In this document: one piece after another, positions 32,826-45,224 of the stretch
Layout: the number at the start of each line of letters is the position of its first letter
How positions within the stretch are numbered: position 1 is the stretch's first letter
Assembly (NCBI RefSeq): GCF_003334315.1
Contig: NZ_QOWR01000018.1
Source of the DNA: Escherichia coli
Lineage (GTDB): Bacteria > Pseudomonadota > Gammaproteobacteria > Enterobacterales > Enterobacteriaceae
Length of the DNA stretch: 64,000 nt
Strand: one strand, 5' to 3'
Position numbers and translations under genes: made by a program
The notes under the pieces: model-generated
What the model was told of the DNA's origin: nothing
What the model saw: only the letters and a program-made list of their open reading frames with translations
The model's database searches: none

Positions 32826-34121
32826 TTAATTTTTCATTGCTTCGTTATGGGGCATGGTTGGGGCAAACTCGCTTAACTGTGTATTTAACAAAGCTACCTG
32901 TGCATTATTGTTTTCAGACATCCATTTTCCGTATACCTGAAATACCATTTGCGCATCTGCATGGCCCATCTGGTTTGCTATAAATGCCGGGTTAGCACCA
33001 GCTGTCAGCGACCAGCAGGCATAAGTATGTCTCGACTGATATGATTTTCGATGGCGGAGTCCGGCACGTTTTATCGCTGCGTCCCACATCTGCCTTATTG
33101 AGTCAACGGTAAAATGGTCACCATAATTTTTTACTCTCGCTGACACTTCAGGTTGAAAAACAAAGGTGCATTTTTGTTTTTCTGTTCTGCCATACTCTCT
33201 GAGGTGAACATCAATGATATGCTCTTTGCTCAGTCTCGTTAATGTCATCTGGCTCCGGAGAGCGTCGATTGCTGGCTTAATAAGATGAATGACCCGATTG
33301 GTTCCCGCCTGTGTTTTTGGTACCGTGAAACGGTCTTTTGCTAAATTTCTCCTGATCATCATTGTTCCATTTTTCAGATCTATGTCCTCCCATCCAAGTG
33401 CACACAGCTCACCAGGGCGAACGCCAGTATAAACAGAAACACACCATAAATTTTTTGCTTGCTGATTTCTGCACGCATCGATAAGACGGATAAATTCCTC
33501 CCGCGAAAGAGGATCCGGAATGGTTCTTGATTCCTTTAATGGCGAGATCCCCTTAAGCGGATTATCTGGCAGGTAACCGTTATCAACACCAAACTGGAAC
33601 ACGGCGTTAAGATTTGTCATGTAATTATTTACAGTTACAGCCGATCGCCCTGGTTGTGTAACAATATAGTTACTTTTGGGGATCTGGTATCCAGTCAGTA
33701 GCTCTTTACGAACCTCCAGTAATTTTTCTTTATTAATCGATGAGGCAAGATTTTTTTCACCGATTATGCTCAGGATATTTTTGATGACGGCACGGTATGT
33801 GTTGAGTGATGTTTTGGCGACTTCAGTTTCTTTCAGTGCCAGAAATTTTTCAGCCAGTTCTTTTATGGTTAAATCTTGTCGGGCCTCACCAAATTTTTCC
33901 AGATTGCGTGAGGAGGGAAACTGTTTTGCATAGTCGAAAACACCAGTTTTTATTGCGTAACAAACAGAGGAGCGTAGTTCACCTGCAACGCGCCTGTTTT
34001 TTGCTGTGTCAGGAACCCCCAGATTTTCCCTGACTCTTACGCCTTTATAAACAAACCAGATACGTAATTTCCCTCCATGGTTTTCCACGCCTGTCGGATA
34101 TTTCATTTCAACTTCTCTCAT
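32826..34121 (-). CDS. phage integrase, tyrosine recombinase (probable start at MKYPTGVENHGG)
   Basis: C-terminal catalytic motifs (R...HxxR...Y region: RHRKSYQSRHTYACW); sits at the prophage edge. Confidence 0.85.
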   Translation of the reverse strand: MREVEMKYPTGVENHGGKLRIWFVYKGVRVRENLGVPDTAKNRRVAGELRSSVCYAIKTGVFDYAKQFPSSRNLEKFGEARQDLTIKELAEKFLALKETEVAKTSLNTYRAVIKNILSIIGEKNLASSINKEKLLEVRKELLTGYQIPKSNYIVTQPGRSAVTVNNYMTNLNAVFQFGVDNGYLPDNPLKGISPLKESRTIPDPLSREEFIRLIDACRNQQAKNLWCVSVYTGVRPGELCALGWEDIDLKNGTMMIRRNLAKDRFTVPKTQAGTNRVIHLIKPAIDALRSQMTLTRLSKEHIIDVHLREYGRTEKQKCTFVFQPEVSARVKNYGDHFTVDSIRQMWDAAIKRAGLRHRKSYQSRHTYACWSLTAGANPAFIANQMGHADAQMVFQVYGKWMSENNNAQVALLNTQLSEFAPTMPHNEAMKN

Positions 34122-34140: not shown

Positions 34141-34392
34141 TCAAGTAAGATGACGTCTTGGTCTCGCTGATGCCTGGCGCTCAATCCAGCGATCAATTTC
34201 TTCCAGGTTGTAAAAGCATGGACTGTTATCCCATGGCATACCGTCATGAGCGACATGCTTATATTCCCTTCCTTCCATAAACGATTTTTCCCGGGCCTTT
34301 TTTAACGTACCTTTTTTTATTCCTTTCAGCGCAATTAACTGCTCTTCGGATACCCATTTGCCGGGAGAGACAATCATGATTACTTCGCTCAT
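34141..34392 (-). CDS. putative excisionase-like protein
   Basis: 83 aa ORF immediately upstream of int in the same operon orientation. Confidence 0.45.
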   Translation of the reverse strand: MSEVIMIVSPGKWVSEEQLIALKGIKKGTLKKAREKSFMEGREYKHVAHDGMPWDNSPCFYNLEEIDRWIERQASARPRRHLT

Positions 34393-34464: not shown

Positions 34465-36936
34465 TTAAGAATCAGCCTGACTCGGGATCAGTTTTTGCCA
34501 GATAACTGAAACGTATTTTGCCTGGTAACGGGCGTCATCAAGTGCATTATGGCGCTCACCTTCGAATGGAATAGCCGTTCTGGCATCGAAGTCTATGGCT
34601 TTCCCCAGCTCAACGATTGTGCGTACATCGCGATCGTTGTAGTAACGCCACGGGCAGGGGATCCCCTGCCGTTCGTATGAACGGCGCAAAATCGTGTTGT
34701 CGAAGTTGGCTCCATTTCCCCAAACCTGAACAAAAAATTCACCGGAGTTTTCGTCGATAAATTCCCGCAATTGTAACAGTGCATCATCTAACGGGATTTC
34801 ATCGGTCATAATGGCAGATTGCGCTTCGCGTGATTGCTTAAGCCACCATTTAATGGTGTTCCGATCAATGACTCCGCCAGCAGTTTCCAGATCGATAGTC
34901 TTACTAAATTCCGGTCCCATATCTCCGGTTTGCGGATCGAAAAATATTGCACCTATTGAGATGATCGGGGCATCAGGATTTTTTCCCATGGTTTCAAGGT
35001 CGATCATTAGATGGTCACACGTCCTGCTGGTGGATGTGATTTCGTGATGACCGTTCACCTTAATTGAGTGATCTGCCGTCTCGCCAGTTTCATTATCGCT
35101 ATTGTGATGCTGATTGCCGCCAGTGTTCTCCTTGTGTGGATGTTCAGCGCCTTCCATTTCCTCCGGATCATCTTCCTGAACTTCAACCTGATATTCTTCA
35201 TCGAATGTTTCTTGATATGTTGCGTCGCCCATCACCGCGCCACAATCAGGGCAGTTGCCGCCGCCGGTCTGACCGCAGGCGGTGCAGACTTTTTCCACTT
35301 CCTGTTGCGCCACTGGTTCAGGCTGTTTCGTTTCTGGCTCGTTTTGTAACGCATTTGTGCTGTTTTGTTCCGCTTTTTGGTAGTTCCGTTCCGATTTATG
35401 CTGGTTCTGGTTCACAGAATCGCGGGTCTGGATCCCCTTAACCCATTTCGGATCATTCGGGTCACTAATCCCTTCAACAAATTCACCACGTGATGCAGCA
35501 AGCAACTTATCGGCGTCAGGCTGGCTGATATTGGCTGCCTGCATAATTTTGTTTACTTCGTCAGCGGTAACTTTTATCGGCTCTGGTTGTTCTGAATCTT
35601 CAGCGGTATCTACATTTTGCGGTAAGCCCGTGTATGTGCCATTTTTTCGGGCAAAATATTCTTCTTTTGTGATTTCAGTGGCGCCAGCAGCCAGTGCCTT
35701 ATCCAGACCAGAAAGTTTGTTTGCGCGACCGTATTTTTCTCCGTCCTTATCTGCGAAGAGGAAATAGAACGGCCCCTCACGCTCTACAGATGGTTCAGCT
35801 TCCGGCGCGGTTTCATTTTTTGGGATATCAGATACCTCAGTTTCCACTGCATCAGTTTGTGTTTCTGATGACTGGAGAACATCAACAGTGCCCAGGTCTG
35901 TTTCTTCATTCTCAAACACGCCCTTTGTCGTCAGGTATTCGCAGATATATTTGTTCAGTGCTATGGGATCTTTGTGAATGTCGATCGGACGCTCACGGAC
36001 AAGGCCAAAAATAGTCTGGCGGTCGTAGCGAAGGGCATCAGGCTGTTTGCGCATTGATGCCGAGATACGCTTCCAGTCTTCGCGGTCGTTGTCGATAACT
36101 TCTTTTTTTGCCCAGCGATGGATGCTGCCGTCAATGTTTCCGGCATCCACATCACCAGGCCAGAGAGCGTAGGCCAGTTCGTCATCCAGTGTTTTCCATG
36201 TCTGCTTGTATTCGCGATGAATGGCAGCAATGACCGGGCTGATTTTTCCTGTTGAATTTTCAGTGTACTGTTGATTGGCTCTGGCGCGGGCGAGATCAAC
36301 AACAGACGTGTATTTTCCGGTTTCCTTGCGTTCACCTTCGCGACGTTTTTTCCAGATGCGCATCTCTGCCTGAATTTCGGGCCATTTAGCACCAGGAATA
36401 CATTTATGCTTAACCCACCCAATGGCGTGCAACTTAAGCTCCGGATACATGGCGTTAACTTCTGGCATTTTCATCAACGCTTCAACGATATGTCCGTCGA
36501 ATGTTGCCATGTCTTCCTGCAACAATTCCTGTGCGCTAATAACCATATCAACGGTGATGTTTTCACATGTGTCGAACTTAACCATGACAGCGTTCTGTAC
36601 TTCAGGGGCCAGCTTGTCAAAAGTGACGTTCATCGGATCGGATTCAGTCTCAACCGGGACAAAAGAAGCAGACTCCTCATCCCAGCGGTTTTCCTGCATA
36701 TATTCAGCATCCCATGAATCGAGGGCAGGGCGGGGTATGCCAGGTTTATCCTCGCAGACAATAAATTTATAAGCGCAGTCCTGAGCAGCCGGATAATGTT
36801 CCAGGAACTGCCAGTGAAATTTTGCTCGAGCACGGCGTTCGTCGCCAGCTTCAATGGCTGTGGCTACAGCCACAGCGCCTTCTTCCCTTGTTGCCAGTTC
36901 GTCAGGAATAGCGGCGCAAATAAAGACTTTACTCAT
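34465..36936 (-). CDS. RecE-family phage exonuclease with a C-terminal DnaQ-like (DEDDh) 3'-5' exonuclease domain
   Basis: C-terminus has Exo I (MIDLETMG), Exo II (GANFDNTIL) and Exo III (HNALDDARYQ) motifs; central DKLLAASRGEFVEGISDPNDPKWVKGIQTRD segment recalled from RecE. Confidence 0.7.
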   Translation of the reverse strand: MSKVFICAAIPDELATREEGAVAVATAIEAGDERRARAKFHWQFLEHYPAAQDCAYKFIVCEDKPGIPRPALDSWDAEYMQENRWDEESASFVPVETESDPMNVTFDKLAPEVQNAVMVKFDTCENITVDMVISAQELLQEDMATFDGHIVEALMKMPEVNAMYPELKLHAIGWVKHKCIPGAKWPEIQAEMRIWKKRREGERKETGKYTSVVDLARARANQQYTENSTGKISPVIAAIHREYKQTWKTLDDELAYALWPGDVDAGNIDGSIHRWAKKEVIDNDREDWKRISASMRKQPDALRYDRQTIFGLVRERPIDIHKDPIALNKYICEYLTTKGVFENEETDLGTVDVLQSSETQTDAVETEVSDIPKNETAPEAEPSVEREGPFYFLFADKDGEKYGRANKLSGLDKALAAGATEITKEEYFARKNGTYTGLPQNVDTAEDSEQPEPIKVTADEVNKIMQAANISQPDADKLLAASRGEFVEGISDPNDPKWVKGIQTRDSVNQNQHKSERNYQKAEQNSTNALQNEPETKQPEPVAQQEVEKVCTACGQTGGGNCPDCGAVMGDATYQETFDEEYQVEVQEDDPEEMEGAEHPHKENTGGNQHHNSDNETGETADHSIKVNGHHEITSTSRTCDHLMIDLETMGKNPDAPIISIGAIFFDPQTGDMGPEFSKTIDLETAGGVIDRNTIKWWLKQSREAQSAIMTDEIPLDDALLQLREFIDENSGEFFVQVWGNGANFDNTILRRSYERQGIPCPWRYYNDRDVRTIVELGKAIDFDARTAIPFEGERHNALDDARYQAKYVSVIWQKLIPSQADS

Positions 36937-37029: not shown

Positions 37030-37221
37030 TTAAAGACCTGCCGGGATTTCGATATTATCCTGGTGAATAACTTTATCGACCGGGTAACAGTTACCGGGAA
37101 TTTTCTGTTCGGTTGCTGCAGTCATACACTCCTGCATTGTCCTGTGAACACTGACTGCAATATCAACTGGCTCTCCGGAAACAAGAAAAACTGTCAGAAC
37201 AAGCGCAAATGCTGAATTCAT
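37030..37221 (-). CDS. ydfD: YdfD-like small lysis-associated protein (63 aa)
   Basis: MNSAFALVLTVFLVSGEPVDIAVS...; 4-nt overlap with dicB stop. Confidence 0.7.
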   Translation of the reverse strand: MNSAFALVLTVFLVSGEPVDIAVSVHRTMQECMTAATEQKIPGNCYPVDKVIHQDNIEIPAGL

Positions 37222-37406
37222 TGTGCACATCCTTTTGGCATCAGACGTAAACGAGCCAGCATTGAAACAATGCATATTTTATTTAATAGCTCCCGTTCTT
37301 GTTTTCTCTTGTTAATGGCATCTTCAGTAAATACAGGGTTACTGATAGTGACACCAATTTCAAAACAACCTTCAGACGTATTAACGTTTGGTAATAACGT
37401 TTTCAT
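37218..37406 (-). CDS. dicB: cell division inhibitor DicB (62 aa)
   Basis: MKTLLPNVNTSEGCFEIGVTISNPVFTEDAINKRKQERELLNKICIVSMLARLRLMPKGCAQ matches DicB as recalled. Confidence 0.85.
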   Translation of the reverse strand: MKTLLPNVNTSEGCFEIGVTISNPVFTEDAINKRKQERELLNKICIVSMLARLRLMPKGCAQ

Positions 37407-37580: not shown

Positions 37581-37633
37581 CGGCGGCAGAGCAGTCACGG
37601 AGTAAAACTGATACCGCCAAACGTCACCAGAAA
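37581..37633 (-). ncRNA. dicF: DicF small regulatory RNA (ftsZ-targeting) with its 3' T-run
   Basis: Reverse complement reads TTTCTGGTGACGTTTGGCGGTATCAGTTTTACTCCGTGACTGCTCTGCCGCCG followed by TTTTT, matching DicF as recalled; located upstream of dicB. Confidence 0.85.
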
Positions 37634-38799: not shown

Positions 38800-39207
38800 T
38801 TATTGATGCTTGTTGCGTTTGCGAGCCTCTAATAGCTCGGTGAACAGGCGATTAAAATTCTCAACGCGGGCGCGGAGTTCGCTGAGTTGTGCTTGTTGCT
38901 CTGATTTAGGAAGTGCGCGATACAAACGCAGCATCTCTAACTCATCTTCCGATAAGTCTAAGGCACTATCGAGTGAAACAGGGGGAGCTGGTGTTTTGTC
39001 CTCGTCGCCAAACAGTATCCAGGTTGGTGAACATTGCAATACCTCGGCGAGGCGATGCAAATTTTGCCCACGCGGGGCTGTATGGTCACTTTCCCATAAT
39101 GAAATTGATGAGCCAGATACGCCAGCAGCTTTGCTTAAACCGTTTTGACTTAAGCCTACCTGCTTACGTCTTTCTCTAATGCGTTGACCTAAAGTTTTCT
39201 CGTTCAT
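38800..39207 (-). CDS. dicA: DicA repressor (XRE-family HTH, 135 aa from MNEKTLGQRIRERR)
   Basis: HTH motif and conserved LQCSPTWILFGDEDK segment recalled from DicA. Confidence 0.85.
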   Translation of the reverse strand: MNEKTLGQRIRERRKQVGLSQNGLSKAAGVSGSSISLWESDHTAPRGQNLHRLAEVLQCSPTWILFGDEDKTPAPPVSLDSALDLSEDELEMLRLYRALPKSEQQAQLSELRARVENFNRLFTELLEARKRNKHQ

Positions 39208-39257
39208 ATTTAGATATCTTAATAACCCTTGACTTGAGATTCCTTGAGTGATTAGCA

Positions 39258-39271
39258 TTGAGAAAACTCAA
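39258..39271. promoter_or_regulatory. operator-like palindrome (candidate DicA site Oc) in the dicA-dicC divergent region
   Basis: TTGAGAAAACTCAA inverted repeat between divergent dicA and dicC starts. Confidence 0.55.
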
Positions 39272-39512: not shown

Positions 39513-40017
39513 ACAGGCTCGTGAGGCTCTGGATGCCTGGATATGTCGACCAGGAATGACACAGGAGCAGGCGACGATATTAATCACTGAAGCATTCTGG
39601 GCTTTGAAAGAGCGCCCGAACATCGATGTTCAGCGTGTCACAGATGAAGGTGGCGCGGTTGATCAGCGAGCGCTTGGCGTTAATCGAGTGAAGATATTCG
39701 AACGCTGGAAGGCTATCGACACCAGGGATAAGCGTGAAAAGTTCACGGCGCTAGTGCCTGCAATTATGGAGGCTATCCGGATTAATGATTTCAGGTTGTA
39801 TCGTGAAATTAGTGACGGAAAAAGCATCACGTACATGATCGCCGGGTTAAACAAAGAATATGGCGATGTGGTGGAGTCCGGACTGCTTTTTGCTGATCCT
39901 GCCGTAGTGGATCGTGAAACTGACGAACTTATAGAAAAAGCAATTGCTTTCAAACTTGCGTATCGACAGCAATACCAACAAAAAGCTGGATGGAATTATG
40001 AGCCTTCTTTTTGCTGA
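39496..40017 (+). CDS. YdaT-like early-region protein (173 aa)
   Basis: Position immediately after the cro-like gene; weak resemblance to Rac YdaT. Confidence 0.45.
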   Translation: MKITPEQAREALDAWICRPGMTQEQATILITEAFWALKERPNIDVQRVTDEGGAVDQRALGVNRVKIFERWKAIDTRDKREKFTALVPAIMEAIRINDFRLYREISDGKSITYMIAGLNKEYGDVVESGLLFADPAVVDRETDELIEKAIAFKLAYRQQYQQKAGWNYEPSFC

Positions 40018-40963
40018 ACGCCCACTGGTTATAAACACACAGCTTGCGATGAAGATTGGCTTAAATGAAGCCATTGTGTTGCAGCAGTTGCATTACTGGT
40101 TGAGAGATACCAATTCCGGCATGGAATGTGATGGTGTTCGCTGGATTTACAACACAACGGAACAATGGCTGGAACAGTTCCCATTCTGGTCAGAGTCAAC
40201 GTTAAAGCGCGCGTTTGCAAGTCTGAAAACGCTGGGGCTTTTGCGTTGTGAAAAGCTCAATAAATCAAAGCGCGATATGACCAATTTCTACACGATCAAC
40301 TATGGGAGCGAGCTTTTAGATGGTGGCAAATTGAACGAATCCATCGGTTCAAAATGCGCCGCTCCATCAGGTCAAAATGACACGATGGAAGAGGTCAAAA
40401 TGAAACGCTCCATTGGTTCAAAACGACCCAATGTCATCGGGTCAAAATGGCCTGATGATCTTACAGAGAATACAACAGAGATTACTACAGAGAATAAAAA
40501 CACTTTTCGTCCGGAAGCTTCGCAACCGGACCCGCAGACCGCTGAACAGGATTTTTTAATCCGGAACCCCGACGCGGTTGTGTTTAGTGCGAAAAAACGC
40601 CAGTGGGGTAGCAGGGAGGATTTGGCGTGTGCGCAGTGGATTTGGGGGCGGATCGTGAACCTTTACGAACAGGCTGCCAGCGACGATGGAGAGATCATGC
40701 GACCAAAAGAGCCTAACTGGACAGCCTGGGCCAATGACGTGCGCACAATGCGGATGCTGGATGGCAGAAGCCACAGACAAATTTGCGAAATGTTTGGTCG
40801 GGTACAGCGAGATCCATTCTGGGTAAAAAACATCATGAGCCCGTCAAAACTCCGCGAAAAATGGGACGAACTGGTCATCCGCTTGGGACGTTCACCTGTA
40901 CAGCGTTGTGTGAATCATATTTCTGAACCGGATACAGAAATTCCGCCTGGTTTCAGGGGATAA
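39998..40963 (+). CDS. putative phage replication initiation protein (O/YdaU-like N-terminal domain)
   Basis: 321 aa from MSLLFAERPLVINTQLAMKIGLNEAIVLQQLHYWL; position in the replication module. Confidence 0.5.
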   Translation: MSLLFAERPLVINTQLAMKIGLNEAIVLQQLHYWLRDTNSGMECDGVRWIYNTTEQWLEQFPFWSESTLKRAFASLKTLGLLRCEKLNKSKRDMTNFYTINYGSELLDGGKLNESIGSKCAAPSGQNDTMEEVKMKRSIGSKRPNVIGSKWPDDLTENTTEITTENKNTFRPEASQPDPQTAEQDFLIRNPDAVVFSAKKRQWGSREDLACAQWIWGRIVNLYEQAASDDGEIMRPKEPNWTAWANDVRTMRMLDGRSHRQICEMFGRVQRDPFWVKNIMSPSKLREKWDELVIRLGRSPVQRCVNHISEPDTEIPPGFRG

Positions 40964-41003
40964 GTGTTGATTTCAGGTCATGAGGTAATTTTAAGGAGGA
41001 CTT

Positions 41004-41426
41004 GTGGCAAAAGTTTTTACACAGGAAGAGCGGGAAAAAATTAAAGAGCAGGTGGTCGAACTTGTGCGCCAGAGCGGTCGCGAGACATTACGACAGTTGG
41101 AAGCTAAAACAGGTGCGACAAGATATCTGATGAGCATTCTTGCCAGAGAGCTGGTTGCCAGTGGTTATGTATACAACTCCGGCTACGGGTTATTCCCGTC
41201 TGAACAGGCACGAAAGGACTGGCAAAATGCCCGCAAAAAACTCTCTAGGGCGAAGGTGAAGAAACCCGCTGTGGTTGATCCGGACCTTATCTGGTCACTA
41301 CCTGATGGAGAAATACGTCGCTACGACAGTCGTCTAAACATAATCTGTCGCGAGTGCCGGAAGAGTGAAGCTATGCAGCGTGTACTGGCTTTCTATCAGG
41401 GTAATTTTCAGGAGGCGGTACTGTGA
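41004..41426 (+). CDS. hypothetical protein (140 aa), early region
   Basis: ORF with upstream AGGAGG RBS; no recognizable family. Confidence 0.5.
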   Translation: MAKVFTQEEREKIKEQVVELVRQSGRETLRQLEAKTGATRYLMSILARELVASGYVYNSGYGLFPSEQARKDWQNARKKLSRAKVKKPAVVDPDLIWSLPDGEIRRYDSRLNIICRECRKSEAMQRVLAFYQGNFQEAVL

Positions 41427-42947: not shown

Positions 42948-43204
42948 ATACAGCGAACTCCATTGGTTTAGTTGGATATTTACTGTGCTGGACAAAACGG
43001 TTTGCGGGGAAATCTTAGTTAAGTAGAATGACTGCGGGTACTTGAGGCTATCTGCCTCGGGCACGAACACCAACGGCAGGTAGAGAAAAGCCCCAGTTAA
43101 CATTACGCGTCCTGCAAGACGCTTAACATTAATCTGAGGCCAATTTCATGCTAGACACATGTAGGTTAGCCTCTTACGTGCCGAAAGGCAAGGAGAAGCA
43201 GGCT

Positions 43205-43360
43205 ATGAAGCAGCAAAAGGCGATGTTAATCGCCCTGATCGTCATCTGTTTAACCGTCATAGTGACGGCACTGGTAACGAGGAAAGACCTCTGCGAGGTA
43301 CGAATCCGAACCGGCCAGACGGAGGTCGCTGTCTTCACAGCTTACGAACCTGAGGAGTAA
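43205..43360 (+). CDS. hokD: Hok-family type I toxin (HokD/RelF-like, 51 aa)
   Basis: MKQQKAMLIALIVICLTVIVTALVTRKDLCEVRIRTGQTEVAVFTAYEPEE; upstream in-frame leader ORF from 43148 (mok-like). Confidence 0.85.
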   Translation: MKQQKAMLIALIVICLTVIVTALVTRKDLCEVRIRTGQTEVAVFTAYEPEE

Positions 43361-44174: not shown

Positions 44175-45224
44175 GTGCGGGTATTACTTCGACCTGTTCT
44201 GGTACCGGAACTCGGGCTGGTGGTCGTTAAGCCGGGCCGTGAATCCATGCCGGTATTCCACAATACCCGGGTACTGGTGGAGCCGGAACCGAAAAGCATG
44301 CGTAATCTGCCGTCCGGGGTCGTTCCTGCCGTTCGCCAGCCGCTGGTGGAAGACAAAACATTGCTGCCGTTTTTCAGTAACGCACGGGTAATTCGTGCTG
44401 CTGGTGGTGCTGGTGCATTGTCTGACTGGCTGTTGCGCCATATTAAATCCTGCCAGTGGCCACACGGCGATTATCATCACAGCGAAACCGTTATTCACCG
44501 TTATGGTACCGGCGCAATGGTGTTGTGCTGGCACTGCGACAACCAGCTGCGTGACCAGACATCCGAATCACTCGAGCAACTTGCTCATCAAAACCTGTCA
44601 GCATGGATGATTGACGTCATCGGTCACGCAATAAGCGGTACGCAGGAGCGTGAATTATCTCTGGCTGAATTATCCTGGTGGGCGGTCCGCAATCAGGTGG
44701 CGGACGCGCTACCGTAAGTGGTATTACGTCGCTCGCTGGGATTACCAGCGGAAAAAAACTGCTCGGTGTACCGCGAAAGCGACATCGTACCGGGAGAGCA
44801 GACCGCCACCAGCATATTGAAACAGCGCACAAAAAATCTTGCACCGTTGCCTCACGCCCACCAGCAACAAAACCCATCACAGGAAAAGACGGTGGTAAGC
44901 ATCACCGTTGATCCAGAGTCTCCGGAATCTTTCATGAAGCTGCCTAAACGTCACCGTTGGGTTAAGGAGAAATACACACGCTGGGTTAAGACACAGCCGT
45001 GTGCTTGCTGCGGTATGCCAGCCGACGATCCGCATCATCTGATTGGTCACGGGCAGGGCGGAATGGGAACCAAAGCACATGATCTCTTTGTGTTGCCTTT
45101 GTGCAGAAAGCATCACGACGAGTTGCATACGGATACCGTGGCATTTGAAGAGAAGTATGGCTCCCAACTGGAGCTGATTTTTCGATTTATCGATCGCGCG
45201 CTGGCAATTGGTGTGCTGGCCTAA
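44175..45224 (+). pseudogene. YdfU-like (DUF968-type, Cys/His-rich) gene interrupted by an in-frame TAA at 44715-44717
   Basis: ORFs 44175-44717 and 44718-45224 are in the same frame separated by one stop codon; combined length 349 codons. Confidence 0.55.

Follow-up and report, generated by a model that had tools for sequence, protein, structure and literature searches.

The window analysed here, 64,000 nucleotides of Escherichia coli DNA, encodes an 823-residue prophage protein in which a RecE-family scaffold carries a C-terminal domain identified, from sequence comparison and a structural model, as a DnaQ-type DEDDh exonuclease that replaces the RecE nuclease. We tentatively propose, with a probability of about 0.4, that this protein is made early by lambdoid phages that have Chi sites but no Rec module, and that it works there as a 3'-5' exonuclease without an annealase.

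The intact ydfE-type gene and its locus

The gene is recognisable from its sequence as an uninterrupted version of ydfE, a pseudogene in the Qin prophage of K-12, to which its first 767 nt are 99.87% identical. The K-12 copy comprises the first 256 codons only and is followed by IS2, and the reference strain therefore has no DEDDh domain. The order dicB-ydfD-ydfE is the same in K-12 and at the present locus (Table 1). The RefSeq CDS WP_032216168.1 ('exonuclease') has the same coordinates as our ORF and a 100% identical sequence, and the PHROG profile phrog_2082 covers the protein end to end. Both Pfam domains of the YdfE family, PF27430 (YdfE_N) and PF27432 (YdfE_C), are present in the precomputed annotation of a 94%-identical cluster representative, P0001. 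Many copies bear the NCBI name '3'-5' exoribonuclease domain-containing protein', and phage records call some of them 'exodeoxyribonuclease VIII'. With the Pfam entries (YdfE_N, YdfE_C and Rv2179c-like) and the NCBI naming, the fused architecture is already catalogued and is less novel than the preliminary description took it to be. The literature that we searched on ydfE-type proteins and on PF16473 in prophages contained no biochemistry or genetics of the 823-residue protein or of its fused relatives, and that on ydfE together with dicB held passing mentions only. The protein is thus a catalogued but uncharacterised variant.

Table 1. Features of the exonuclease gene and its neighbourhood (window positions)
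Feature	Position	Strand	Basis
Tyrosine integrase; prophage end adjoins rspB	32826..34121	-	ORF and RefSeq
Excisionase gene, directly downstream of the exonuclease gene	34141..34392	-	RefSeq annotation of identical locus
Intact ydfE-type gene	34465..36936	-	ORF, 823 aa, ATG start
DEDDh (DnaQ-like) exonuclease domain, aa 641-820	34477..35016	-	Pfam PF16473; phmmer to DexA; Foldseek; alignment to DexA
Segment most RecE-like, aa 472-625 (RecE 457-591): conserved motif, zinc ribbon, acidic tail	35062..35523	-	BLASTP
Zinc ribbon C551-x2-C554-x7-C562-x2-C565	35242..35286	-	Motif positions
Small alpha/beta domain, aa 385-440	35617..35784	-	pLDDT 90-96; dN/dS 0.06 (strong constraint)
Helical core domain, aa 246-345, common to all YdfE and RecE scaffold proteins	35902..36201	-	
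YdfE_N region, aa 1-245	36202..36936	-	PF27430 on 94%-identical cluster representative; phrog_5943; AF2 models
ydfD (lysis protein), directly upstream, same operon	37030..37221	-	RefSeq annotation of identical locus; same order in K-12
dicB (cell-division inhibitor)	37218..37406	-	RefSeq annotation; K-12 order
DicF sRNA, marker of the dicBF early-left operon	37581..37632	-	Rfam RF00039, 72.5 bits against a gathering score of 48
DicA/CI-type repressor gene, head of the leftward region	38800..39258	-	ORF and RefSeq

The gene lies in the early operon dicF-dicB-ydfD-ydfE-xis-int, and would be the last gene before xis/int on the leftward early transcript that includes dicF, dicB and ydfD. A promoter and terminator scan around it returned fewer sites than shuffled sequence, and a private promoter is thus unsupported. 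The dicB operon of K-12 Qin is repressed by DicA. Given this and the gene order, the place of the exonuclease gene in the leftward early operon leads us to expect synthesis of the protein in lytic growth or upon induction, and its repression in the lysogenic state. Elsewhere in the window prophage, a ydfU-like gene carries a nonsense mutation.

The gene is among the commonest E. coli prophage genes, being carried by 3537 of 5426 complete E. coli genomes. Its carriers include prophages and records of Stx2a-converting phages of Shiga-toxin-producing strains, as well as isolated, viable phages that form plaques, among them HannyBb, Tritos, PhiR42_1 and mEp460_ev081. An intact ORF of exactly 823 aa was found in 64 of the 79 relatives retrieved, and the dN/dS across relatives is 0.26, which denotes purifying selection. 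Such conservation bears on whether the gene is a decaying, non-functional remnant of a defective prophage. The truncation of the K-12 copy by IS2 and the nonsense mutation in the ydfU-like gene would fit decay; on the other hand, the intact reading frames, the invariant catalytic residues described below, the purifying selection and the presence of the gene in plaque-forming phages make it very improbable.

A DEDDh exonuclease domain on a RecE-family scaffold

The preliminary description had noted a RecE-like central segment followed by a DEDDh C-terminus in place of the PD-(D/E)XK nuclease, and both observations are borne out by our analysis. Pfam PF16473 (Rv2179c-like) matches aa 642-813 with an E-value of 9.1e-67, spanning model positions 2-177 of 177; the RNase_T match is weak (E 9e-4). 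The Exo I (DxE), Exo II (D) and Exo III (Hx4D) motifs are represented by D646, E648, D746, H796 and D801. Each of these residues is kept by 78-80 of the 80 relatives, and the two that deviate are copies that end before the motif. The AF2 model of aa 641-820 has pLDDT values mostly of 80-95, and its top Foldseek matches are T4 DexA, RNase T, Cap18 and Orn/REXO2, all with probability 1.00, with ERI3 as a further structural neighbour. The PD-(D/E)XK fold was absent from these matches, and DUF3799, the RecE nuclease (RecE 564/606-866), has no Pfam match in the 823-residue protein. Thus neither the domain search nor the structural model placed the C-terminal region in the fold of the RecE nuclease.

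T4 DexA (PDB 8KEL) was the only significant PDB sequence match (22-24% identity; phmmer E 4.5e-8), and it is a DNA 3'-5' exonuclease (PMC12153337). The two belong to the same DEDDh subfamily, with DexA D7, E9, D119, H186 and D191 aligned to the five catalytic residues named above. By homology, the domain would remove nucleotides from 3' ends by two-metal catalysis. It differs from DexA in its setting and in detail: DexA is a standalone enzyme (~190-230 aa, as EcD probably is too), whereas the present domain forms the C-terminal quarter of the 823-residue protein, and the DexA-specific loops are missing from aa 641-820. Closer relatives are the standalone DnaQ-like exonucleases of lambdoid phages, mEpX2 gp32, epsilon34 gp34 and those of mEp460 and PhiR47_1, which are 53-59% identical to the C-terminal domain. 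These genes also lie in the early-left operon, but they encode unfused proteins of ~180-190 aa. The mEpX2 gene sits inside an annealase-SSB-Abc2 Rec module, and other standalone DnaQ-like genes lie near int in phages without a Rec module. Standalone DnaQ-like exonucleases of lambdoid phages, including the epsilon34 copy in an annealase-SSB-Abc2 module, are noted by Zheng et al. 2025 (PMC12315714). The location of standalone relatives in such modules ties the DEDDh domain to DNA-end metabolism.

The preceding 640 residues are probably organised as several small folded domains, including the zinc ribbon, on long acidic and disordered linkers. BLASTP aligned K-12 RecE 278-591 with aa 262-625 (39% identity, E 3e-61); the identity is much higher from about aa 475 onward, and no similarity was found beyond RecE residue 591. 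At the nucleotide level, the identity to recE is 77.7% over 443 nt. The zinc-ribbon cysteines are kept in 79-80 of 80 relatives and also in RecE, so that all the elements of the RecE non-catalytic scaffold, namely the central helical domain, the zinc ribbon and the acidic tail, were found. The NCBIfam RecE equivalog NF007259 scored 280.4 bits against a cut-off of 1269, the match being limited to aa 246-625, or model positions 271-602 of 877. Upstream of this portion, aa 1-245 are unlike the RecE N-terminus (Exonuc_VIII). Within them, AF2 models a confident helical domain at aa 137-205, while aa 1-135 are conserved (dN/dS 0.08) but poorly modelled.

Rac RecE and the 823-residue protein therefore have in common a homologous non-catalytic scaffold, with the helical core and the CxxC-x7-CxxC zinc ribbon in both, and a beads-on-a-string arrangement with the nuclease at the C-terminus. 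RecE carries a ring-forming PD-(D/E)XK 5'-3' nuclease, an Exonuc_VIII N-terminus and an adjacent recT, whereas the present protein carries YdfE_N in its first 245 residues, has no recT, and ends in a DEDDh domain that, by homology, would act 3'-5' with two metals and a His general base. Presumably the scaffold recruits the nuclease to whichever partner or substrate is recognised by the N-terminal region of RecE. Against this targeting idea, the scaffold domains matched no known fold in our comparison.

The missing annealase and a probable module exchange

The reported lack of an adjacent RecT was confirmed: the ORFs and the RefSeq annotation leave no gene, hence no recT, between the exonuclease gene and xis/int, and PHROG scans detected no annealase among the other early genes of the window prophage. 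A tblastn search with seven annealase seeds (RecT and six others) gave no match in the whole window, although the positive controls worked. The window, 80 viral loci related to it (IMG/VR; 0/80 with an annealase) and the complete phages HannyBb and Evi yielded no homologue of RecT, Bet, Erf, Sak4 or Rad52-like proteins, nor one of Exo, Gam, Abc2 or SSB. The annealase of a two-component viral recombinase of the SynExo/EATR type was thus not found. An O-like gene was the only replication gene found in the window prophage. Chi sites number 8 in the 31-kb prophage part of the window, 7 in HannyBb and 15 in Evi. Without an annealase, Exo, SSB or anti-RecBCD gene, the carrying phages fit the Chi-containing class with no Rec module (LLS functional type), as that class is described by Zheng et al. 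2025 (PMC12315714), where DnaQ-type genes near int are not counted as Rec-module members.

Among the relatives of the scaffold, the type of nuclease co-varies with recT. Every scaffold protein with a PD-(D/E)XK domain (6/6) has a RecT-family gene directly downstream, and none of the five cluster representatives with a DEDDh domain has an annealase (0/5). The gene downstream of P0131 is a RecT-like annealase by PHROGs (E 3.5e-101), where plain BLASTP to K-12 RecT gave no match. P0128 is a natural chimera, in which RecE 1-592 (88% identity) is joined to the DEDDh domain described here. Other modules found on the scaffold are a fused RecT and a third, unclassified 'exonuclease' (phrog_7838). We considered whether phrog_7838 is a divergent RecE-type PD-(D/E)XK domain and rejected this (hhalign probability 0.1%).

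These combinations suggest two forms, a RecE type with PD-(D/E)XK and a downstream recT, and a ydfE type with DEDDh and no downstream annealase. Recombination within the conserved zinc-ribbon and acidic segment may have exchanged the nuclease domain together with the annealase gene, as a unit; aa 472-625 are the likely crossover zone. Since the DEDDh form swaps in without an annealase, it would not be one half of a two-component recombinase. The preliminary description had placed the gene in a 'recombination slot' and surmised a recombination enzyme of new mechanism. The slot holds as far as synteny goes (kilR/dicB, the scaffold gene and xis-int are arranged as in Rac) and as far as the nuclease type follows recT, but not beyond; the recombination enzyme finds no support in carriers that have Chi sites and are devoid of any recognisable Rec-module gene.

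Candidate roles and their meaning

If the protein is an early exonuclease acting without an annealase, it would work alone on DNA 3' ends, the candidate substrates being 3' tails, flaps, non-homologous ends at breaks, and replication or recombination intermediates. The carrying phages, with Chi and without a Rec module, would presumably depend on the host RecBCD and RecA. Poxviruses offer a precedent for viral recombination driven by 3'-5' resection, with no need of a 5'-3' exonuclease. There, the 3'-5' exonuclease of the DNA polymerase drives single-strand annealing, albeit as a proofreading domain in an unrelated protein context. The view cited in PMC12315714 is that 3'-5' exonucleases generally antagonise rather than promote recombination.

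Expression of dicB, the neighbouring gene, protects against some phages. It is conceivable, though unlikely, that the exonuclease likewise serves in superinfection defence of the HREX/EcD type, in which the DexA-like enzyme of a lysogen destroys the 5hmC-modified DNA of T-even phages that enter the cell. The C-terminal domain is homologous to DexA, and Kang et al. 2025 (PMC12153337) report that EcD (HAK9828821.1), a homologue of DexA from E. coli, degrades T4 genomic DNA and confers protection on its host. However, the proposed 5hmC-reading residues of DexA are not kept (W152 corresponds to Y766 and D169 to A780, the alignment being uncertain near 780, with D782 and D784 nearby), and the tetramer-forming D90 of DexA, which is Ala in EcD (PMC12153337), is retained in the aligned position as D718. 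On neither count does the domain resemble a member of the HREX/EcD type. Moreover, the gene belongs to a repressor-controlled early-left operon and has no promoter signal of its own, PADLOC defence models gave only a 23-residue match that was not significant (E 0.024), and defence would leave the 640-residue RecE scaffold unexplained.

RNA is a conceivable substrate as well, since the Pfam family is named after the exoribonuclease Rv2179c. Like Rv2179c, Orn or RNase T, the enzyme might, in the course of phage development, trim RNAs or break down short (oligo)nucleotides, among which immune signalling nucleotides are a possibility. The Rv2179c-like family is the best Pfam match, RNase T, Orn/REXO2 and ERI3 are structural neighbours, and the NCBI name of many copies points the same way. 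The closest solved homologue, however, is the DNase DexA, with no other significant PDB sequence match, the scaffold is elsewhere coupled with RecT or with an exonuclease that acts on DNA, and standalone relatives lie inside DNA recombination modules, all of which renders an RNA-directed role doubtful.

Less probable still is the scavenging of host DNA, the first role of T4 DexA, by which host DNA fragments would be converted to mononucleotides for phage replication. Homology to DexA and the early expression expected from the operon position would suit it; yet no temperate lambdoid phage is known to degrade the host chromosome, an endonuclease partner is not evident, and the scaffold is that of RecE, a recombination enzyme. 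A canonical RecE (exodeoxyribonuclease VIII) orthologue with 5'-3' dsDNA exonuclease activity, as the phage-record names and the partial NCBIfam match would have it, is refuted by that low score confined to the non-catalytic region, the missing PD-(D/E)XK/DUF3799 domain, the DEDDh fold and the lack of RecT.

An annealase-independent early exonuclease accordingly stays our preferred, if tentative, reading. A broader proposal, which we regard as speculative and improbable as a whole, is that the scaffold is a general delivery platform by which exchangeable modules for DNA processing reach a shared target. The DEDDh form would then be a single-protein, annealase-independent end-processing pathway through which Chi-containing, Rec-module-less lambdoid phages cooperate with the RecBCD/RecA-dependent replication of the host or steer it.

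For decades no function has been assigned to the first ~590 residues of RecE, yet they improve linear-linear recombineering (review PMC11611040). Our analysis indicates that the same scaffold recurs in nature with a nuclease whose predicted polarity is the opposite, and that recT is dropped exactly then; the scaffold would therefore need neither the RecE nuclease nor RecT in order to work, and the natural chimeras are material for dissecting it. If the protein is merely an accessory exonuclease, the outcome is an annotation correction, in that it is not exonuclease VIII. It could also become a compact 3'-5' resection tool. To learn its role, whether in RecBCD/Chi-dependent growth, phage blocking or otherwise, would add a missing piece to the biology of lambdoid phages and, if the platform proposal is true, the N-terminal 590 residues of RecE, long without an explanation, would gain a function open to test.

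An intact ydfE carrying a DEDDh domain

The 823-aa reading frame of the preliminary description exists as described, and is identical to a RefSeq CDS, WP_032216168.1 ('exonuclease'), which numerous complete E. coli chromosomes carry. Of 5426 complete E. coli genomes, 3537 contain a match over at least 80% of the gene. In the Qin prophage of K-12, ydfE is a pseudogene; the window carries its intact form, with 99.87% nucleotide identity across the first 767 nt, beyond which IS2 interrupts the K-12 copy. In newer Pfam releases, YdfE_N (PF27430) and YdfE_C (PF27432) both cover a near-identical cluster representative. The protein belongs both to the DEDDh superfamily and to the YdfE family, which is already catalogued, and its fusion architecture is implicit in the Pfam and NCBI annotation. 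The literature searched yielded no account of the fusion, none of its cassette-like co-variation with recT, and no experimental work.

The sole strong Pfam match of the C-terminus is PF16473, the 'Rv2179c-like 3'-5' exoribonuclease domain' (aa 642–813, E 9.1e-67), accompanied by a weak match to RNase_T. The catalytic residues are D646 and E648 (Exo I), D746 (Exo II), and H796 and D801 (Exo III), which align with D7, E9, D119, H186 and D191 of the T4 exonuclease DexA, as assigned in PMC12153337. DexA (8KEL) is also the only significant PDB sequence match (E 4.5e-8 using the domain alone). Foldseek matched the AlphaFold2 model to DexA, RNase T, Cap18, a DnaQ domain and Orn/REXO2 in the PDB, each with probability 1.00, and to no PD-(D/E)XK protein. 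Homology therefore shows a two-metal DEDDh exonuclease, which should remove nucleotides at 3' ends. Assignment to the RecE nuclease fold, named beforehand as the outcome that would speak against a DEDDh C-terminus, was given by neither the domain search nor Foldseek.

The remainder resembles RecE in part. The NCBIfam RecE equivalog model covers only aa 246–625 (model positions 271–602 of 877), and its score of 280 bits lies below the cut-off of 1269. In BLASTP, aa 262–625 align with residues 278–591 of K-12 RecE (39% identity, E 3e-61); the RecE nuclease domain (residues ~600–866) finds no match anywhere in the protein. The similarity is much stronger from about aa 475, in a stretch with a CxxC-x7-CxxC zinc ribbon as well as an acidic tail; its DNA matches recE at 77.7% identity over 443 nt. 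The AlphaFold2 model has a mean pLDDT of 64.8. Strong purifying selection acts on the first 135 residues, which nonetheless lack a confident fold and may therefore be a binding region.

Features of the gene, its product and the surrounding prophage (nt, window; aa, 823-aa protein; structural descriptions from AlphaFold2)
Feature	Position	Strand	Details
823-aa ORF	34465..36936	-	ATG start
N-terminal region	aa 1-135 (36532-36936)	-	dN/dS 0.08; pLDDT 28-55
Segment	aa 1-55		poorly modelled, pLDDT 40-55
Segment	aa 56-136		low confidence, likely disordered
Helical region	aa 140-220		confident
Helical domain	aa 246-345		pLDDT 95-98
Linker	aa 346-384		dN/dS 0.82
Segment	aa 347-383		low confidence, likely disordered
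Small alpha/beta domain	aa 385-440		dN/dS 0.06
Helical segment	aa 457-500		moderate confidence, pLDDT 55-76
Segment	aa 500-636		low confidence, likely disordered
DEDDh domain	aa 641-820		confident; dN/dS 0.31, with little divergence there
DicF sRNA	37581-37632	-	Rfam 72.5 bits, above gathering score; upstream of dicB
Replication module	39944-41426	+	O-like initiator, then Ren-like gene only
sok antitoxin RNA	43036-43210	+	hok/sok-type locus; above Rfam gathering score
ydfU-like gene	44175-45224	+	HNH/DUF968 (phrog_96)
In-frame TAA	44715-44717		splits ydfU-like gene
Chi cluster	44216-44865		three +, two -

Operon context and selection

The prophage integration site adjoins rspB. On the minus strand, a DicA/CI-type repressor, two small genes, DicF, dicB, ydfD, the 823-aa gene, xis and int follow one another, and this row is the leftward early operon; the promoter scan around the 823-aa gene gave no sign of a private promoter. 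In Rac, the counterpart position is occupied by recE-recT.

An ORF bearing the Exo I motif was recovered from 79 of 80 related viral loci; 64 of these ORFs match the 823-aa length exactly, and contig ends cut several of the others. Overall dN/dS is 0.26 (window gene versus 53 partners with <93% identity), and no relative departs from the catalytic residues or the zinc-ribbon cysteines apart from truncated copies and one C562Y. The gene also occurs in phages that form plaques, namely HannyBb, PhiR42_1, Tritos, mEp460_ev081, Evi and the PPompW phages. A decaying remnant is thus rejected for the intact gene; the K-12 copy is decayed.

Elsewhere in the prophage, the TAA in the ydfU-like gene replaces a Glu present in HannyBb and K-12 YdfU, and looks like a nonsense mutation; the window prophage would therefore be at least slightly degraded. 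The same gene holds five Chi octamers (GCTGGTGG) within 650 bp. A sok RNA lies in the early-right region. In the replication module, the analysis recognised neither a P/helicase-loader gene nor one of DnaB type, an unstudied arrangement described for LLS-type lambdoids (Zheng et al. 2025, PMC12315714).

Exchange of C-terminal modules

An exhaustive HMMER search with aa 1–640 returned only 247 clusters among 1.84 billion representatives, and the scaffold family is narrow and, apparently, one of enterobacterial prophages. Segment-wise phmmer and Pfam comparisons revealed modular shuffling: either YdfE_N or the RecE N-terminus (Exonuc_VIII) precedes a common central domain and zinc-ribbon/acidic segment, followed by a DEDDh domain, a RecE-type PD-(D/E)XK domain (DUF3799), a phrog_7838 'exonuclease', an unnamed fourth module or, in one case, a RecT domain. 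The last, one of 29 aligned scaffold proteins (Pfam, E 2e-42), is a scaffold–annealase fusion in a single polypeptide.

In the cluster representative P0128 (locus L009, 6001–8418), RecE residues 1–592 (88% identity to K-12 RecE) are followed by a DEDDh domain almost the same as that of the window, and the join coincides exactly with the border between scaffold and nuclease. Its context is a Rac-like kilR-ydaE, with xis/int directly downstream and no recT. A RecT-family gene lies directly downstream of all six PD-(D/E)XK representatives examined (K-12 RecE, P0131, P0225, P0200, P0198 and P0251) and of none of the five DEDDh representatives (window, P0128, P0141, P0122 and P0245; exact test p ~0.002, the representatives being 50%-identity clusters and only roughly independent). 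Where DEDDh loci have enough downstream sequence, xis and/or int come next. The simplest reading is that the PD-(D/E)XK domain with recT, and the DEDDh domain, are alternative cassettes swapped by recombination in the zinc-ribbon/acidic segment.

The phrog_7838 module (~240 aa) occurs on the YdfE scaffold in P0129, P0135, P0169, P0185, P0211 and locus L107 (5001–7702), where a Sipho_Gp157 gene and then xis/int follow. Pfam has no match for it, and no relationship with the RecE nuclease could be detected. These proteins may correspond to 'RecE-2', said to lack a nuclease domain (Zheng et al. 2025, PMC12315714).

Absence of an annealase and possible role

PHROG scans of the other early genes identified a CII-like activator, an O-like initiator, a Ren-like protein, the split HNH gene and a Q-like antiterminator, and no annealase. 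Tblastn seeds comprising RecT, two RecT-like proteins, lambda Bet, P22 Erf, HK620 Sak4, the mEpX2 Rad52-like protein, lambda Exo, Gam, P22 Abc2 and a phage SSB found no match anywhere in the window, in 80 IMG/VR loci with close relatives (0.91 Mb), in the other DEDDh-fusion loci, or in the complete genomes of HannyBb and Evi (homologues 99.4% and 84% identical); all positive controls matched. Chi sites number 7 in HannyBb, 15 in Evi and 8 in the prophage part of the window, compared with zero in control early-left segments of lambda (2.5 kb) and mEpX2 (12.5 kb); the whole window holds 13, against 1.9 expected from shuffles. With Chi present and no Rec-module match, the carriers fall into the lambdoid class termed 'no Rec module, Chi-containing' (PMC12315714). 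DnaQ-like nucleases of lambdoid phages are described inside Rec modules and also sporadically near int (Zheng et al. 2025, PMC12315714).

We tentatively propose, with a probability of roughly 0.4, that the likeliest role of the protein is to trim 3' tails, flaps or non-homologous ends for phages dependent on host RecBCD and RecA. In lytic growth, the leftward early promoter would drive the gene together with dicB and ydfD, and the protein would act without an annealase. Defence against modified phages, as by the DexA homologue HREX/EcD (PMC12153337), is a rival; DexA D90 is kept, the proposed 5hmC-reading positions of DexA align to Y766 and A780, and the place of the gene in the operon speaks for repression in the lysogen, all of which weigh against it. 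A second rival is an RNA or oligonucleotide substrate, to which the Pfam family name points. DNA is the most likely substrate, because the nearest characterised homologue is the DNase DexA, because the scaffold elsewhere carries a DNA exonuclease or RecT, and because standalone DEDDh relatives (53–59% identical) lie within annealase-SSB-Abc2 modules (mEpX2; epsilon34, PMC12315714). Scavenging of host DNA is a further alternative. Canonical RecE function, the name given in many records, is refuted, and orthology with RecE is rejected, as none of its three defining features (NCBIfam score, nuclease fold and RecT partner) was found.

The main value of the protein is twofold: it offers a natural experiment on the unexplained N-terminal region of RecE, and it provides the only recognisable DNA-end enzyme of lambdoid phages that have no Rec module.
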